Source of the DNA: Dehalococcoidia bacterium
GTDB taxonomy: Bacteria; Chloroflexota; Dehalococcoidia; Lucifugimonadales; UBA3495
Length of the DNA: 64,000 bases
NCBI GenBank assembly: GCA_965203835.1
Contig: OZ241919.1
Span: forward strand, 3,220,188-3,284,187
Reading direction: 5' to 3'
A program made the translations under genes and the position numbers. The notes beneath the pieces were generated by a model, which searched no databases, had not been told where the DNA came from, and was given only the letters and a program-made list of their open reading frames with translations. Numbering within the stretch: position 1 is the first letter of the stretch; every line of letters starts with the position of its first letter. This document shows, in pieces, positions 26,639 to 33,629 of the stretch.

Positions 26639-26763
26639 TGGATTCCCGCATTCTCGGGAATGACGGTATGTATTTCGAGTGACGTTCCTTCTCGGGAATG
26701 ACGGTATGTACTTCGAGTGACGTTCATTCGCGGGAAAGACGGGATTTTCGCGGGGGTGACGTT
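26639..26763. repeat. REP-like element array (about 125 nt, includes a 38-nt unit duplicated in tandem)
   Basis: TGGATTCCCGCATTCTCGGGAATGACGGTATGTAtTTCGAGTGACGTTCCTTCTCGGGAATGACGGTATGTAcTTCGAGTGACGTTCATTCGCGGGAAAGACGGGATTTTCGCGGGGGTGACGTT. It fills the whole spacer between two convergently ending, same-strand genes. Confidence 0.85.
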
Positions 26764-28148: not shown

Positions 28149-28463
28149 ATGGATCAACTGGAAATGAATATATCCGCTTACGTCCATATAAGGGAACACT
28201 TGGAAATGCAACATCGGGGTGACTGGGTGGTGTTGCATAACAGGAGGCTTGCCGGTATCTACAGTTCCTACGAGGAAGCCTACAAGAAAGCCTTGGGGCG
28301 CTTCGGCCCAGGGCCCTACCTTATAGCAGAAGTGGGTGGGGAGTGGATAGACAAGCGTGTGAGAGAGGTGCAGGCCAAAGCCGCCAAGTGGCTAGCTGAC
28401 GCAGGCGGGAGCGCCCCTAGTCTCGAGGACATACCTCGCCGCCGCAGCGAGATTCAAGGATGA
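28149..28463 (+). CDS. Putative antitoxin (unknown family) of a decayed VapBC-like module
   Basis: 104 aa. Its stop overlaps the downstream PIN-remnant start (ATGA at 28460). GGGAGGATACCC precedes the ATG. Confidence 0.5.
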   Translation: MDQLEMNISAYVHIREHLEMQHRGDWVVLHNRRLAGIYSSYEEAYKKALGRFGPGPYLIAEVGGEWIDKRVREVQAKAAKWLADAGGSAPSLEDIPRRRSEIQG

Positions 28464-28663
28464 TTCTTGCGGATACATCGATTTGGGTGGACCACTTTCG
28501 AAGGCCGAACGCTGAAATGATAGAACGTCTCACCGCCGGTGACGAGGAAGACCATGTGATAAACCGCGCGCCTCTATCGGGACCGCCGCGACTTCGTAAC
28601 CTAGCCCAGGGACACTCGGGCAAGCGGGAAGACTACCCGGTGAATCCTGCGTATCAGAGTTAA
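28460..28663 (+). pseudogene. Truncated PIN-domain (VapC) toxin remnant
   Basis: MILADTSIWVDHFRRPNAEMIERLTAGDE is a textbook VapC N-terminus (first catalytic Asp). After ~30 aa the PIN pattern is lost and the ORF ends at 67 aa, whereas PIN toxins are about 130 aa. Confidence 0.65.
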
Positions 28664-28674
28664 GGGAGGTTTCG

Positions 28675-29709
28675 ATGCCCGACAGTGATACTTTGCTGGC
28701 TTACTTGGTTTCCAGCTTTCCCGGCAATACGGAGAACATCGCTACGGAAGCGCTTCGACACATTTTCGACCACTCTGATGCCTCGGTGGAGGCGTTGAAC
28801 GACGTGGTGCAGTCAGGAGTTCGTGGGACAAAACCTATCGTCAGCGTGAAATCCCAGGTGATCCAAGCAGATGGAACACGCCCGGACTTGGTGGGGTTTG
28901 ACGAGACCGGTGGCGAGAGGGTCCTTATTGAAGTGAAGTTCTGGGCTGAACTAACACCCAATCAGCCCAACAGTTACCTCAACCGGCTGCCGGACGATGG
29001 TCCTGCGGTCGTGATGTTCCTGGCACCGGAGGAGAGAATCCATTCATTGTGGCCTCATTTGAAAGGACGCATAAATCGGGGGTTCGATACTTTGACGGAG
29101 ATTGACTCGGAACGCAAATGCGTTCGTGCCGGGGACACGGAACGGCATTTGATGGTGGTCAGTTGGGGAAGTCTCCTTGACAGCATGGCCGCAAGGAGCA
29201 GGGATTTCGATGAGTCGGGTGTCGAAAACGAAATCCGCCAGTTGCGAAGTCTTGCCAAGTACGCCGACGCAGGAGCGCTGAAGCCAATCCGACGGGGCGA
29301 GGAATTTGGAGAGGACTCGGAGATGCGCCTACGCCAATACAAGCGCCTCATTGATGCCGCCACTGAAAGAGGAATTGAGCAGGAATGGGCAAGCCGTAAG
29401 GGGTTGAGGGCAACTCCCCGCCCTTACGGTTTCGGCAGGTATATCAGCATTCGTGGCGCTATTGTGTGGTTCGGCGTCAACATTGACCAGTTCGAACGAA
29501 CCGGCGATACGCCTTTGTGGATAGATTGCCTCACCCATTTGGTAGACAAACCCGCCGAGGTGCGCGACGAACTTGGCATGTCCGACGCCAATTGGGTCCC
29601 GGTCAACCTGAAAAGAGATGTAGAGTACCCCGAAATGCTTGACGGCGTCGTTGAGAGCTTGAAGCACATTGCCGACGCCGTTTATGAGGCCCGCTTCCCG
29701 TCCGGTTAA
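28675..29709 (+). CDS. PD-(D/E)xK nuclease-fold protein, hypothetical
   Basis: 344 aa. RPDLVGFDETGGERVLIEVKFWAEL supplies a D ... E-x-K core in the usual beta-strand context. No other motif recognised. Confidence 0.55.
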   Translation: MPDSDTLLAYLVSSFPGNTENIATEALRHIFDHSDASVEALNDVVQSGVRGTKPIVSVKSQVIQADGTRPDLVGFDETGGERVLIEVKFWAELTPNQPNSYLNRLPDDGPAVVMFLAPEERIHSLWPHLKGRINRGFDTLTEIDSERKCVRAGDTERHLMVVSWGSLLDSMAARSRDFDESGVENEIRQLRSLAKYADAGALKPIRRGEEFGEDSEMRLRQYKRLIDAATERGIEQEWASRKGLRATPRPYGFGRYISIRGAIVWFGVNIDQFERTGDTPLWIDCLTHLVDKPAEVRDELGMSDANWVPVNLKRDVEYPEMLDGVVESLKHIADAVYEARFPSG

Positions 29710-29737
29710 CCGCGTTCTCACCGTTACAATGTTTTTG

Positions 29738-29760
29738 CGGACAGCCATTTGGCTGTCCGG
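29738..29760 (+). terminator. Hairpin after the PD-(D/E)xK gene
   Basis: cggacagcc-attt-ggctgtccg forms a 9-bp perfect stem, 29 nt after the stop and preceded by TTTTTG. No downstream U-tract. Confidence 0.4.
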
Positions 29761-29818
29761 TAGGCTTGTGAAAGTCTTTACCGACAGCAAATGTCTGAAT
29801 CAGGATTACCAAGATTAA

Positions 29819-29853
29819 GGGATTCTCAGGATTGGGAATATCCTGAAAATCCC
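29819..29853. promoter_or_regulatory. 35-nt nested palindrome (operator-like) upstream of the ATPase-PIN pair
   Basis: GGGATTctCAGGATtgggaatATCCTGaaAATCCC. Two tiers of 6-bp inverted repeats, and an extra CAGGATT copy 20 nt upstream. Confidence 0.45.
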
Positions 29854-29912
29854 GAAATCCGGTAAATGTTCATTCAGAAAATTACTTTGCACAAGCCCTG
29901 CATTTTGGCCGA

Positions 29913-29921
29913 TGTTATAAT
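29913..29921 (+). promoter_or_regulatory. Extended -10 promoter element
   Basis: TGTTATAAT (TGnTATAAT consensus) lies 20 nt before the ATG at 29941. GAGGA lies between them as the SD. No good -35 element. Confidence 0.45.
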
Positions 29922-29940
29922 CGGCGCGAGGATAGTTGGC

Positions 29941-31182
29941 ATGATAACGAACATCACACTGGGCAATTTCAAGTGCTTCCGGCACGTGAGCATCGACCCG
30001 AAGCTGGTCACGGTCCTGATTGGGCCCAACGGCACGGGCAAGTCGGGCGTTCTGCAGGCGTTGATGTTGCTCAAGCAGTCCAGGGACGACGTCAGGTCAT
30101 TGAAGTTGCAGGGTGATTTGGTGTGGTTCGCGCCGGAAGCTTTCGGGCTTCAAAGTCTTGATGCTGTCTCCGCGACCGTTAGGTTGTCGGTGTCCGGGCA
30201 TGAGTATATCGAAGCGGAGACGGTTGAGAGTCAGGTTGATTTTTGGGTTGACCTCAACTATGAGGGTGATGCCAAGCTAACAACCAAGATTGGAACGACG
30301 GTGTTCAGAATTCTCGGGCGGGAATTCCGGGTGTTTTTCAATCAAGAAGAAATATCGTCCAGTCTCAATACTCCCTTAGGTGACATCTTTTATGAAGAGC
30401 GAAATGGAATCAACAATTTCAGGGTGATAGGTTATTCAGGGATAGCAGAGGCCATCCCCGATGTTTGGGAGCAAATATCCCAAGCCCCCATGAATACCTT
30501 CGCAAATATAAAGATGGTCTCGGCGGCCAGGGCATTGACCCGAGGAACCTATCACTTGGGGCCTGAACTTTCCGATGATATTTCGAGCGCCGGTGGGTTG
30601 GGGAAACAGGAAGCGGACACGGCTACGACGTTGGCTTATTCTCGAAGTGACGTCGAAAAAGTTTCCCGTTCGATGAAACGAGTCACGGGGGTTGGATTCA
30701 GAACGGATACCGTTCCTCCGCAATCGGCAAAACCAATTTCCGAGGCTAAGTCTGGGGATTTCAGTCTTGTTGCTGAGGGGTTCGGGACGAACGCTCTCGT
30801 CCGACTCTTGTTTGAAGTGGTGCGGGCCGTTCCGGGGGCTACGGTGTTGATCGAGGAGCCGGAGGTCCATCTTCACCCCAGGGCGCAGGCGGACTTGGCG
30901 TCGGTGCTGGTTGAGGAGGCTAAGGCGGACAGCAAGCAGATAATCATGACCACGCACAGCGAGCATGTGGCGGGAAGACTGCTTACCTTGGTGGCGGAAG
31001 GGAAGCTGTCGCCGGAAGAGATCGCCATTTACTCTTTCGAAAAGGATGAGAACGGCGTCTGTTCTGCCCAGGAGATCGAAGTAACCGAGCACGGCCAGGT
31101 AGTGGGAGGTCTGAAGAGTTTCTTCGAGACGGACTTGGACGAAATGCGTCGGCTTGTGGATGCGCTGCGTGCTAGAGCATGA
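29941..31182 (+). CDS. ABC/SMC-like ATPase of the AAA_15/AAA_21 type (possibly with DUF3696-like C-terminus)
   Basis: Walker A GPNGTGKSG, Walker B VLIEEPEVHLHP and H-loop MTTHSEH. The start is set at MITNITLGNFKCF (29941), the usual N-terminus of these ATPases. Confidence 0.8.
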   Translation: MITNITLGNFKCFRHVSIDPKLVTVLIGPNGTGKSGVLQALMLLKQSRDDVRSLKLQGDLVWFAPEAFGLQSLDAVSATVRLSVSGHEYIEAETVESQVDFWVDLNYEGDAKLTTKIGTTVFRILGREFRVFFNQEEISSSLNTPLGDIFYEERNGINNFRVIGYSGIAEAIPDVWEQISQAPMNTFANIKMVSAARALTRGTYHLGPELSDDISSAGGLGKQEADTATTLAYSRSDVEKVSRSMKRVTGVGFRTDTVPPQSAKPISEAKSGDFSLVAEGFGTNALVRLLFEVVRAVPGATVLIEEPEVHLHPRAQADLASVLVEEAKADSKQIIMTTHSEHVAGRLLTLVAEGKLSPEEIAIYSFEKDENGVCSAQEIEVTEHGQVVGGLKSFFETDLDEMRRLVDALRARA

Positions 31183-31649
31183 CACCCCGCTTCATCCTGG
31201 ACGAAAACGTTGTAATACTGGCGCAGCAGGGGCTTGATGAAAGAGGAAATCCCAGCCCCGTTTGCGCCGAACTGGTCCGACGGATCATCGAGATTTGCCA
31301 CACCATCGTGGTGGATGACGTTCTGTGGGACAAGTTTGACGGACAACTCAACCGGCCCGGTTACCAACTTCCTCAAGCCGGTCCCAACCTACTGCGTGTT
31401 CTTTGGAACGCCCTCACGATCGTCAATAAGATAGACGGTCTGGGTAGCACCGCGCCCCCCTTCGGCGAAGAAGGGTTGATTCCATCCGGCAGTATAGATG
31501 ACACTTATATCGTGAGGCTGGCAGTGGAGTTCGGGGCAATATTTGTCACGACTGACGGGCCTATTCGGGACGACCTGCGGGACTCGGGGATTCGGGATGC
31601 TTACGGGTTGACGGTGGTTTCACCTGACGAGGCATTGGGGATATTGTGA
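31179..31649 (+). CDS. PIN-like nuclease-fold protein (putative effector), translationally coupled to the ATPase
   Basis: ATGA overlap with the ATPase stop. FILDENV (strand 1 Asp), then DDTYIVRLAVEFGAIFVTTDGP (late Asp pair) resemble the PIN acidic residues. The assignment was made by eye only. Confidence 0.5.
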   Translation: MTPRFILDENVVILAQQGLDERGNPSPVCAELVRRIIEICHTIVVDDVLWDKFDGQLNRPGYQLPQAGPNLLRVLWNALTIVNKIDGLGSTAPPFGEEGLIPSGSIDDTYIVRLAVEFGAIFVTTDGPIRDDLRDSGIRDAYGLTVVSPDEALGIL

Positions 31650-31714: not shown

Positions 31715-31742
31715 TGGATTCCCGCCTGCGCGGGAATGACGG
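31715..31742. repeat. REP-like hairpin, canonical copy
   Basis: TGGATTCCCGCCTGCGCGGGAATGACGG. The 8-bp stem is ATTCCCGC/GCGGGAAT and the loop is CTGC. Confidence 0.9.
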
Positions 31743-31775: not shown

Positions 31776-32369
31776 ATGCCTATTTTCGTGGAAATGACCA
31801 TACACGCCGCCGGAACCGATCCGATGGGGTACGATACAGACATGTTTAAGCAAGAGAGAAGACCGCTTTATTGGGACAACCACGAGGGGTTTCGGCGACT
31901 GCTGATAATCGGCAGTATCTCGCTGGTTATCGGCGTATTTTTCGGCGACCAGATAGGGCGGTCTGAGGGATTCACATGGCTTCGAGGATGGTTCCCGATT
32001 TTCATGTGGACTTCCGGGCTGGCTACCTTGGCTATATGCTTCCTGGTCCATCCGCGGCAGTATTCAATTTACCCGGACTATTTATTGGTTGAGTGGTGGT
32101 ATCCCCGCCGGAAGGTCGTCCCTTTCAATGAAATAACCGAACTCCAAGCTTGGACCAGCGTGGGCCGGAAGAAAATCATCGTGCTGAGCAAGGGGGATGA
32201 CTACGATTTCGGCTTCGACGCAATCGCGCCCCGGCGGATAGGGGTCTTCGCTCAACGGCTGGAAGAGGCGTTGAACCGCCACCGTTTCTTTGCAGGCCGG
32301 GACCCCCTCCAGATTCGGCCGGAACGGTCGCGCAGAGACAAGAACAAGGGCCAGGGGTCCCAACCCTAA
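31776..32369 (+). CDS. Membrane protein with two TM helices and a bacterial PH-like (YdbS/DUF304-type) domain
   Basis: LLIIGSISLVIGVFFG and WFPIFMWTSGLATLAICFLV helices, followed by YSIYPDYLLVEW...VPFNEITEL..., as in bPH_2 proteins. The start is uncertain (31776, 31827 or 31845). Confidence 0.5.
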   Translation: MPIFVEMTIHAAGTDPMGYDTDMFKQERRPLYWDNHEGFRRLLIIGSISLVIGVFFGDQIGRSEGFTWLRGWFPIFMWTSGLATLAICFLVHPRQYSIYPDYLLVEWWYPRRKVVPFNEITELQAWTSVGRKKIIVLSKGDDYDFGFDAIAPRRIGVFAQRLEEALNRHRFFAGRDPLQIRPERSRRDKNKGQGSQP

Positions 32370-32465: not shown

Positions 32466-32696
32466 GTGATGAAGAATATAACTCTCAGCGCCGATGAGGG
32501 ACTCATCAAGGAGGCGCGCCGCATCGCCGCTTCCCGCAGCACTACGCTGAACGCCGAGTTCCGGCTGTGGCTGGCCGACTATGTGGGGCGAAAGCGGCAA
32601 GCAGAGAAGGCCATGGCCACCATTCGCGAATTGCAGGCCATCTATGGCACCGGTGGGCGCAAGTTCACCCGGGAAGAGATGAATGAGCGCCGATGA
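32466..32696 (+). CDS. Antitoxin-like RHH protein, orphan
   Basis: 76 aa. NITLSADEGLIKEARRIAASRSTTLNAEFRLWLADY is an RHH/CopG-like antitoxin pattern. It is followed only by a 14-codon stub (see findings). Confidence 0.55.
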   Translation: MMKNITLSADEGLIKEARRIAASRSTTLNAEFRLWLADYVGRKRQAEKAMATIRELQAIYGTGGRKFTREEMNERR

Positions 32697-32847: not shown

Positions 32848-33219
32848 GTGACGATTATGTCCCCAGCCGGAGATTCCGCTACCGGCAAGGCTGACAACTC
32901 CTTCCATGAACAGTACAAAGATGCTCTGGACCGGGAGCCGGTGGACTATGCTTTCCTGGAAGAACACCTGGATGAGCTGGACCTTAGCCCGACGCACTTT
33001 GAAACTATGGAAGAGAAGCATCGGCGCCAGGGAGATGAGATGCTGCGCTTCAAGGAATTCGTGCGTACCCTGGACGAAGCGCAACAAAAGCTAAGCGACC
33101 GGGAGCGCTTTCGTCTGTTCTTGAAAGAAGAGGGCCGGCATGACCGAGAACAGCGGAGGCGCTATCTTCTGTTCCTCAGGCACGACCGGCATGATTTGGC
33201 CGAGATGAACCAGGAATGA
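32848..33219 (+). CDS. Highly charged helical protein, putative atypical antitoxin of the downstream VapC
   Basis: 123 aa and very rich in E/D/R/K. Its stop overlaps the VapC start (ATGA at 33216). Confidence 0.5.
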   Translation: MTIMSPAGDSATGKADNSFHEQYKDALDREPVDYAFLEEHLDELDLSPTHFETMEEKHRRQGDEMLRFKEFVRTLDEAQQKLSDRERFRLFLKEEGRHDREQRRRYLLFLRHDRHDLAEMNQE

Positions 33220-33629
33220 CGCTGCTGGTTGATACCGGGCCGTTAGTAGCCATTATAAACCGAGGAGACTCTCGCCATGCGGACTGTACTGCAATGCTGC
33301 GGGACCTGCGGAGTGAGCCGATGGTTACTACCTGGCAGTGCTTTACCGAGGCCATGTATTTCATTGGCCGCGACGCCGGCTATCATTTTCAGGATGCCTT
33401 GTGGGATATGCGCAGCGCCGGGTTAATCAGTATTCACACAACGACGGATTCGGAGGCCGACCGCATGGCGTTGTTGATGCGTCGCTATAGAAATTTCCCA
33501 ATGGACTTGGCCGATGCATCGCTGATTGTGGCGGCGGAATCCCTTGCTATTCGCCGCCTTTTCACGATTGATTCCGAATACTACTCTTACCTCCTCGCCG
33601 ATGGCTCAGTAATGGAAGTAATCGCCTGA
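33216..33629 (+). CDS. vapC: PIN-domain toxin (VapC family)
   Basis: MTLLVDTGPLVAIINRGD ... FTEAMYF ... DLADASLIVAAE ... FTIDSEY. All four PIN acidic positions are present. 137 aa. Confidence 0.8.
   Translation: MTLLVDTGPLVAIINRGDSRHADCTAMLRDLRSEPMVTTWQCFTEAMYFIGRDAGYHFQDALWDMRSAGLISIHTTTDSEADRMALLMRRYRNFPMDLADASLIVAAESLAIRRLFTIDSEYYSYLLADGSVMEVIA

Follow-up and report, generated by a model that had tools for sequence, protein, structure and literature searches.

A divergent HEC-03-type pair of an ABC ATPase and a PIN-fold protein in a low-GC island of a Dehalococcoidia genome

We analyzed a 64,000-nucleotide (nt) stretch of DNA from a Dehalococcoidia bacterium (assembly GCA_965203835.1, contig OZ241919.1, positions 3,220,188 to 3,284,187), which is called the window below; all positions are those of the window unless a related locus is named. 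The subject is a pair of overlapping genes that encode an ABC-type ATPase and a small PIN-fold protein. A preliminary description, made from the DNA letters and a list of open reading frames (ORFs), had grouped this pair with an upstream gene for a PD-(D/E)xK protein into a candidate defence module. The three ORFs, their strands, the motifs quoted for them and the overlap between the second and third genes are all present in the sequence. They are as follows (aa, amino acids).

28675-29709, plus strand: 344-aa ORF, PD-(D/E)xK-like neighbour, outside the ATPase/PIN module.
29941-31182, plus strand: 413-aa ABC-type ATPase ORF (AAA_15/AAA_21, 'OLD-ABC') with a DUF3696-like C-terminal tail.
31179-31649, plus strand: 156-aa stand-alone PIN-fold ORF, acidic site kept; start codon overlapping the stop of the ATPase gene.

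The ATPase stop codon and the start codon of the 156-aa gene share the ATGA at 31179-31182, which can be read directly from the sequence. The 344-aa gene and the ATPase gene are separated by a gap of 231 nt. The guanine-plus-cytosine (GC) content is 0.50-0.57 over approximately 27.5-34 kb and 0.62-0.67 in both flanks; the TA-rich island described earlier is therefore a real GC dip. This low-GC region is bounded by an alpha/beta-hydrolase gene and an FAD-linked oxidase gene. An Rfam scan of 26.5-34.5 kb gave no match. The mechanical ORF list also contains a longer version of the ATPase gene that starts at 29866 and gives a 438-aa product. We rejected this longer ORF because a promoter-like -10 element falls inside the extension. 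All homologues begin with MITNITL, and the sequence upstream of this point is unrelated among them; therefore, the start was placed at 29941.

The 156-aa protein has 318 close relatives with 62-88% identity. Nearly all of them are 156 aa long, and none contains a Pfam domain. Scanning by pattern was limited to one genome per species; of 185,579 species representatives, 32 matched the search patterns, and all 32 loci are in metagenome-assembled genomes of Dehalococcoidia/Chloroflexota. When the window proteins were used as tblastn queries, the ATPase gene was located directly upstream of the 156-aa gene in 31 of the 31 Chloroflexota loci with upstream DNA. The ATGA junction is kept in at least 24 of 30 related loci, and in four further loci an ATGA is found a few codons upstream of the start of the tblastn match. 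All-versus-all clustering of the ORFs in 33 loci yielded two universal clusters only, the ATPase and the 156-aa protein; a third conserved gene was sought by this clustering and was not found. The other widely recurring clusters were antisense shadow ORFs of the pair or paralogues of metabolic genes whose positions vary (luciferase-like monooxygenase, Ldh_2, histidine kinase, and alpha/beta hydrolase). The conserved functional unit consists of two genes, the ATPase and PIN genes, and not of three.

A profile search with the PIN family against 1.84 billion representative proteins extended this view. It gave 298 representatives at E ≤ 1e-3, and none of the best 150 was longer than 186 aa. Where the match covers the full length, the protein is 140-190 aa long and stands alone; therefore, the family is not a domain of larger proteins. 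Six distant members with 24-37% identity were placed in their genomic contexts, and in six of six the PIN gene immediately follows a gene for a 410-462-aa AAA_15/AAA_21 ATPase, either abutting or overlapping it. The flanks of the six loci are otherwise unrelated, and three of them contain the archaeal markers TFIIB and IF5A. The co-occurrence of the two genes had been proposed earlier as a check, and they are indeed conserved, translationally coupled neighbours in the 31 Chloroflexota loci and the six distant contexts.

The three archaeal-context loci differ in some details. The PIN-like protein is longer (178-190 aa), the ATPase is 462 aa, and the next gene after the PIN-like gene, in the same orientation, encodes a 409-410-aa metallophosphoesterase (L038, 6605-7834; L039; L040, 6576-7808).

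Decayed copies of the pair were observed in five loci. In L003 (7001-7405), the PIN protein is truncated at residue 135, and in L032 (7001-7096), it is cut to 32 residues. L029 (7001-7487) has an internal duplication or a frameshift in the PIN gene, and the ATPases of L019 and L021 are without most of the region called Insert-1 below. Such decay is turnover typical of an accessory or defence gene, and together with the patchy distribution, it speaks for an accessory character of the pair.

The 156-aa protein contains the motifs FILDEN (residues 5-10), GSIDDTYIVRLA (104-115) and VTTD (123-126), and its acidic site is composed of D8, D46/D47, D107/D108 and D126. An AlphaFold2 (AF2) model based on a 24-sequence alignment had a predicted local distance difference test score (pLDDT) of 75 and a predicted template modelling score (pTM) of 0.74. 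In a Foldseek search of this model against the Protein Data Bank (PDB), all of the top 31 matches were VapC or other PIN-domain proteins; the best E was 4.5e-4, the probability reached 1.00, and the template modelling (TM) scores were 0.42-0.53. Among 112 full-length representatives of the family, D8 is retained in 96%, E9 in 92%, D108 in 99%, T/S124 in 100% and D126 in 100%, and D46/D47 are invariant in the close clade. The partner had been described before as PIN-like with an acidic site, which agrees with the VapC/PIN matches and the conserved D8, D108 and D126, and the protein does model as a PIN fold when its fold is checked. Its acidic site appears to be intact. The structural confidence is moderate because the pLDDT is 75. 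We propose the 156-aa protein as a putative RNase effector.

A Cys-His pair (ICHT/NCHx) at residues 40-41 (31296-31301) is kept in 88% and 82%, respectively, of the 112 representatives. It is non-canonical for a PIN motif. The PADLOC model PDC-M11A weakly matched 8 of 24 close and 7 of 38 distant PIN relatives, with a best E of 1.1e-6; it was also tried on seven further PIN proteins and gave no match.

When the PIN family profile was compared with PDB sequences, nine weak matches were obtained (E 0.4-1.7), of which all but one are RNases of the PIN/NYN type (PRORP1, KHNYN, ZC3H12C and RNA-free RNase P). Their alignments lie on the segment GSxDD...VTxD, which in PRORP1 contains catalytic aspartates. 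A housekeeping RNA-processing enzyme, such as a HARP/PRORP-like RNase with an ATPase partner, would account for the fact that the catalytic motifs of PRORP1 and RNA-free RNase P are the best profile matches, for the high conservation (62-88%) and for the housekeeping genes that flank some loci. However, these profile matches are weak, and an enzyme of this kind does not fit well with a family that occurs in 32 of 185,579 species representatives and has truncated or decayed copies. The ATPase insert is also hypervariable, and both components are homologous to defence proteins. We regard a housekeeping role as very improbable.

The ATPase has the following motifs and regions, where invariance refers to an alignment of 23 family members.

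30022-30045, plus strand: Walker A motif GPNGTGKS, residues 28-35; G28, N30, G33 and K34 invariant (n = 23).
30085-30510, plus strand: Insert-1, hypervariable, residues 49-190; putative trigger-sensing surface.
30517-30537, plus strand: VSAARAL with the invariant R197 at the Q-loop position, as assigned by alignment and not by structure.
30772-30792, plus strand: AEGFGTN, a GxG variant of the ABC signature, as assigned by alignment.
30844-30879, plus strand: Walker B/D-loop VLIEEPEVHLHP, residues 302-313; E305, E306, P307, E308, L311, H312 and P313 invariant.
30949-30966, plus strand: H-loop TTHSEH, residues 337-342 (TTHS, 337-340); T338, H339, S340 and E341 invariant.
31006-31155, plus strand: DUF3696-like tail, residues 356-405, including GGLKSFFETDLDEM; putative PIN docking site.

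In the alignment, Walker A, IEEPExHLHP and THSE are invariant, and EGFGTN takes the place of the SGG signature. The replacement of Gln by Arg at the Q-loop and of SGG by GxG are features of NsnB, the ATPase of the Menshen defence system (Li et al. 2025, PMC12065111). Pfam assigned AAA_15 (5e-28) and AAA_21 (1e-21) to the protein. A DUF3696 match at residues 356-405 is sub-threshold (E 0.017) in the window protein but spans the whole 52-position profile; with a cut-off of E ≤ 0.1, DUF3696 is found in 11 of 23 family members, with a best value of 5.8e-5. The top PADLOC match was NsnB (1.3e-45, full length), followed by the ATPase model of HEC-03 (5e-31), AriA and PDC-M55A. All 23 family members, including those in archaeal contexts, match the NsnB model. 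This match is not specific because the genuine HEC-03 and PDC-M55 ATPases also score highly on it; therefore, it places the ATPase in a clade and not in Menshen. The C-terminal 69 residues alone matched PDC-M55A (1.8e-8), NsnB (5e-4) and the HEC-03 ATPase model (8.5e-4), while residues 45-270 alone, which cover Insert-1, did not match any PADLOC model. As judged by these profile comparisons, the ATPase belongs to a DUF3696-tailed clade with Menshen NsnB, HEC-03 and PDC-M55. The earlier assignment to the AAA_15/AAA_21 (OLD-type ABC) layout of Septu, PARIS and Gabija is in agreement with both Pfam and PADLOC.

The conservation of the ATPase is very uneven. In the close clade, the mean pairwise identity is 75% in the N-terminal core, 23% in Insert-1 (residues 49-190), 71% in the C-terminal core and 70% in the tail, and that of the PIN family is 68%. 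By its contrast with the conserved effector, Insert-1 is a candidate sensing surface.

The closest characterized relative is HEC-03. In this system, an ABC ATPase is combined with a VapC-like PIN protein. The system confers protection on E. coli, defence depends on both genes, and induction is toxic (Payne et al. 2024, bioRxiv 10.1101/2024.01.29.577857). The preliminary description was not aware of a characterized ATPase and PIN pair with this layout, and this view is therefore outdated. In PADLOC, the ATPase is represented by the model PDLC04148 and the PIN protein by PDLC04147. The A and B labels are swapped between the two sources: the ATPase is 'HEC-03B' and the PIN protein 'HEC-03A' in PADLOC-DB, and the ATPase is HEC-03A and the PIN protein HEC-03B in the preprint.

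A tblastn search of the window ATPase against plasmids gave 'DUF3696 domain-containing proteins' at approximately 25% identity. Among them, an Aeromonas pAsa9-like plasmid locus (L044) is a bona fide HEC-03: its ATPase scored 1.1e-133 on PDLC04148 (445 bits over 1-458), and the overlapping 177-aa PIN gene scored 3e-23 on PDLC04147. The window pair has the same gene order and the same overlapping junction as this locus. In both, the first gene encodes an ABC ATPase with a DUF3696-type tail and the second a small PIN protein that stands alone and has acidic residues; the ATPase tails are related. For the PIN proteins, we aligned six HEC-03 sequences from five genera and compared the alignment with the window family by hhalign. 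The comparison with the 156-aa family gave a probability of 93% and an E of 3.4e-7 over 139 columns, and that with the distant PIN subset gave 70% and 4.2e-5. The acidic residues are in register: D8 of the window protein with D7 of HEC-03, VVDD with VIDD (D45 of HEC-03), D108 with D113, and D126 with D134. Because of these profile-profile and tail matches, both window proteins are remotely homologous to their HEC-03 counterparts. The locus is a divergent HEC-03-type ABC ATPase/PIN pair within the DUF3696-tailed clade, and this type is already known.

The two families are nevertheless well separated. The identity is approximately 25% between the ATPases and approximately 19% between the PIN proteins in the hhalign alignment, and Insert-1 of the window ATPase is unrelated. 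Their locations differ as well: the HEC-03 loci examined are plasmid-borne (proteobacterial and actinobacterial), and the window family is found on chromosomes, in Chloroflexota and in archaeal-type surroundings. A PADLOC run, which had been suggested as a check, would not call the locus, as its PIN protein is unmatched and its ATPase is matched best by NsnB. The kind of system already has a name, but the present family is missed by the PADLOC models.

The plasmid HEC-03 loci have a further gene. The PIN gene is immediately followed by a gene of the RNA ligase family (Pfam RNA_ligase, 2.9e-34) in Aeromonas, Azotobacter, Tistrella and Rhodococcus, and in an Acinetobacter plasmid, an HNH endonuclease gene occupies the place of the RNA ligase. 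The third gene is located at 5928-6629 in L044, in L045, at 3540-4232 in L047, at 3501-4193 in L049 and at 3582-4181 in L050, and at 3538-4296 in L048. HEC-03, which was published as a two-gene system, may have an overlooked third component of an RNA-repair type.

The high NsnB score requires a comparison with Menshen. Menshen consists of NsnA (ParB-DUF262 and ParBDB), NsnB and NsnC, which has an inactive PIN domain and a C-terminal nuclease (Millman et al. 2022; Li et al. 2025, PMC12065111). AlphaFold3 models predict a clamp in which the DUF3696 tails of NsnB hold the PIN-like domain of NsnC (Li et al. 2025, PMC12065111). The window locus is similar in that an NsnB-like ATPase (Arg at the Q-loop, GxG, DUF3696 tail) is followed by a gene whose product begins PIN-like. 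A reduced Menshen, in which NsnB is combined with a minimal, PIN-only NsnC and NsnA is lost or encoded elsewhere, would explain the ATPase features, the full-length NsnB match as the best in PADLOC and a PIN-like partner in the position of the NsnC N-terminus, which is predicted to bind the NsnB tail. However, no NsnA/DUF262 gene was found in the nine window ORFs scanned around the pair, including both flanking genes, or in approximately 39 related loci, the distant ones being judged by their Pfam-annotated neighbours, so that a ParB-DUF262 gene stands beside the pair in none of them. The 156-aa protein had no NsnC match in PADLOC. The window PIN protein is single-domain, keeps its acidic residues and is conserved (68%), and the ATPase insert is variable; in contrast, the PIN domains of NsnC are without these acids, carry a C-terminal effector and are hypervariable. 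The NsnB model itself is unspecific, as described above for the HEC-03 and PDC-M55 ATPases. Membership in Menshen was rejected on the grounds that NsnA is missing and the partner is a single-domain PIN protein with its acidic residues kept. The missing NsnA also largely refutes the reduced form, which is very unlikely.

PARIS (AriA/AriB), Septu (PtuA/PtuB) and Gabija (GajA/GajB) resemble the pair more distantly. Each has an OLD-type ABC ATPase that is paired or fused with a nuclease and is thought to gate it. The window ATPase matched the AriA, GajA and PtuA models with E of 1e-14 to 1e-31, restricted to generic core motifs. The effectors of these systems are Toprim (AriB and the GajA C-terminus) or HNH (PtuB) proteins, whereas the window partner is a PIN protein, and no AriB, PtuB or GajB model of PADLOC was matched at the pair. 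An effector unlike the HNH and Toprim nucleases of the known systems had been predicted from the letters, and this view is maintained.

The PIN protein shares the VapC-like fold and the acidic site with type II VapBC toxin-antitoxin (TA) systems. The pair might therefore be an addiction or stress module of the TA type, in which the PIN protein is a VapC-like toxin, the ATPase is a proteinaceous antitoxin or regulator, and the function is locus stabilization or growth arrest without a dedicated role against phage. This is the main rival explanation. It is favoured by the structural neighbours of the PIN protein, which are VapC toxins, and by the VapBC-like cassettes around the pair (a truncated VapC at 28460-28663 and a 123/137-aa gene pair at 32848-33629). 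Many copies are chromosomal and lie between housekeeping genes, and HEC-03 is toxic when induced. However, the closest characterized relative defends against phage and needs both genes to do so. In all loci, the gene that precedes the PIN gene encodes the ATPase; a protein of 413 aa with a hypervariable insert is atypical for an antitoxin, and a small DNA-binding antitoxin gene is absent. In addition, the C-terminal motifs of the window PIN protein resemble those of NYN/PRORP-type PIN proteins. A pure TA module is unlikely, although it deserves more weight than a housekeeping RNase or a reduced Menshen. In mechanism, the TA and defence readings share common ground, as abortive infection systems often resemble TA modules.

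We favour the reading that the pair is a self-contained, ATPase-gated PIN nuclease cassette and a distant relative of the validated anti-phage system HEC-03, with a probability of roughly 0.7. Several observations weigh against it. The window ATPase matches the HEC-03 model over residues 269-404 only (106 bits). The window PIN protein has no match to the HEC-03 PIN model at E ≤ 1, only 3 of 24 close PIN relatives touch this model at all (E ≥ 0.003), and the protein is likewise unmatched by the Pfam, NCBIfam and other PADLOC models. A downstream RNA-ligase or HNH gene was present in five of the five plasmid HEC-03 loci examined, and the window pair has none. The AF2 model of the PIN protein is moderately confident, with a pLDDT of 53-69 over residues 41-110, and its Foldseek TM-scores are only approximately 0.45-0.53. 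The second acidic position (D46/D47) is not invariant across the wide family. Many pair loci lie among housekeeping genes and not in recognizable defence islands, and a pattern search based on the alignment of close PIN relatives found no relative on viral contigs.

By analogy with the related systems, the cassette is probably an ATPase-gated RNase that acts by abortive infection. The ATPase would oligomerize, and its DUF3696-like tail would hold the PIN protein inactive, as in the models of NsnB-NsnC and by analogy with PARIS and Septu. The hypervariable surface of Insert-1 may sense a trigger derived from the phage. Binding or hydrolysis of ATP would then release or activate the PIN protein, whose acidic metal site may cleave RNA (tRNA, rRNA or mRNA). 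This cleavage would stop the growth of the infected cell or destroy the transcripts of the phage.

A wider relationship may be considered tentatively. The DUF3696-tailed ABC ATPases of NsnB, HEC-03, PDC-M55 and the window family could form one superfamily, in which the tail clamps a PIN-fold partner. The window family would be a fourth lineage that is missed by the models; it would represent a minimal state with an intact, conserved PIN effector and with Insert-1 as the direct sensor. We consider this possible rather than probable. If true, the minimal state inverts Menshen, where the hypervariable PIN domain is inactive and sensing is left to a separate ParB-DUF262 protein. The shared combination of a DUF3696-like tail and a PIN partner across Menshen, HEC-03, PDC-M55 and the window family suggests a common docking mechanism. 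The validated ATPase and PIN type represented by HEC-03 is extended here to Dehalococcoidia/Chloroflexota and, apparently, to archaea. Because PADLOC-type models miss the window family, defence gene counts in poorly charted Chloroflexota and archaea would be underestimates. No new principle is involved; the family is an expected, divergent branch of ABC-ATPase/nuclease immunity.

The 344-aa gene upstream of the pair was examined separately. The motifs RPDLVGFD (residues 69-76) and LIEVKFW (84-90), on which its PD-(D/E)xK assignment had been based, are present in the N-terminal part of the protein, and P70, D71, E86 and K88 are invariant in 27 homologues. The family has 343 homologues with 64-99% identity, of which some are 411-440 aa long and none has a Pfam domain. 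Direct searches of the protein against the Pfam, NCBIfam and PADLOC families gave no match, with VRR_NUC scoring only 0.076, and a PDB sequence search gave nothing meaningful. The AF2 model has a pLDDT of 85, and its C-terminal domain is confidently modelled and has no structural match. The top Foldseek matches were YaeQ, 3ijm (restriction-endonuclease-like) and DrdV; all of them have the restriction-endonuclease-like fold, but the matches are weak (E 0.02-0.3, low TM).

The neighbourhood of this gene decides whether the PD-(D/E)xK, ATPase and PIN proteins could act together as one module. The 344-aa gene adjoins the pair in 2 of 33 loci, namely the window and L002 (86% identity). L002 is syntenic with the window, with the same order of a TPR protein, a hydrolase, the island and an FAD oxidase. 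In tblastn searches, the gene was missing in L001 and L003, where synteny is equally well kept, and in the non-syntenic loci. Its homologues elsewhere (L041-L043) are single and lie in unrelated contexts without the pair, near a DNA methylase/HATPase, an integrase, EVE and DUF433; in the genome OZ240229, the homologue is approximately 0.6 Mb from the ATPase/PIN pair. Moreover, a hairpin and a separately conserved promoter-like element are located between the 344-aa and ATPase genes. The common strand, the short gap and the recurrence in L002 speak for the grouping; the other observations speak against it. We rejected the three-gene grouping of the preliminary description on these data; it is refuted as a conserved association, and a joint function of the three proteins is extremely improbable. 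The 344-aa gene is an unrelated accessory gene that landed in the same variable region as the VapBC-like remnants.

The following regulatory and repeat elements were found in the vicinity of the pair.

29738-29759, plus strand: perfect 10-bp hairpin CGGACAGCCA-TT-TGGCTGTCCG, 29 nt after the 344-aa stop, with no T-run.
29786-29886, unstranded: imperfect long palindrome with the core GGGATTCTCAGGAT...ATCCTGAAAATCCC at 29819-29853; the 'operator-like element' of the preliminary description.
29914-29922, plus strand: extended -10 element TGTTATAAT, promoter-like, 18 nt before the ATPase start codon; putative function.
31718-31737, unstranded: palindrome ATTCCCGCCTGCGCGGGAAT resembling repetitive extragenic palindromes (REP-like), 69 nt after the PIN stop.

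A scan with two hexamers missed TGTTATAAT because there is no -35 element at the canonical spacing (16-18 nt). In an alignment of 160 nt upstream of the ATPase gene from 25 related loci, a TGnTATAAT-like element lies 18-20 nt before the start in most of them, and the DNA farther upstream is unrelated. The fixed distance of the -10 element combined with the unrelated upstream DNA gives comparative support for a putative promoter that travels with the cassette. The extended -10 element attributed earlier to the pair is therefore present and has counterparts in most related loci. The hairpin at 29738-29759 probably separates two transcription units, and it may function as a terminator.

The two palindromes fared differently from what had been proposed. 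The long palindrome exists, but none of the 25 related loci has it upstream of the ATPase gene, not even L002 with its 344-aa gene, and we rejected it as a conserved operator. The REP-like hairpin at the end of the group is real but is not a feature of the module. The family ATTCCCGC-NNNN-GCGGGAAT has seven sites in the 64-kb window against 0.01 expected, of which three are identical; the 20-nt sites are at 26642, 31718, 38644, 39946, 45668, 54236 and 63813. Similar elements are located upstream of the ATPase gene in L001 and L003. The palindrome is a dispersed genome repeat that is not specific to the module, and it looks like a member of an extragenic repeat family of this Dehalococcoidia lineage.

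The low-GC island contains other small genes. Upstream of the 344-aa gene, a 104-aa ORF (28149-28463) overlaps a 67-aa ORF (28460-28663) through an ATGA, and the first 33 residues of the latter match a VapC toxin model (NCBIfam, 8e-4). These two ORFs are apparently the decayed remains of a VapBC-like pair. In L001, residues 1-58 of the 104-aa protein are found again on the 3' side of the PIN gene; therefore, small cassettes move around the island. Downstream of the pair, overlapping genes encode 123-aa and 137-aa proteins (32848-33219 and 33216-33629), and this gene pair is kept in L001 (59-63% identity). The 137-aa product has the PIN-like motifs LVDTGP..., DLADASLIVAAE and FTIDSE and no Pfam match. 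A 76-aa ORF (32466-32696) with a weak DUF6364 match recurs in L001 and L002. The 123/137-aa gene pair and the 76-aa ORF are probably further TA cassettes. A 197-aa ORF (31776-32369) has hydrophobic segments and a weak match to bPH_5, a bacterial PH domain, and it is kept beside the ATPase/PIN pair only in L003 (87% identity).

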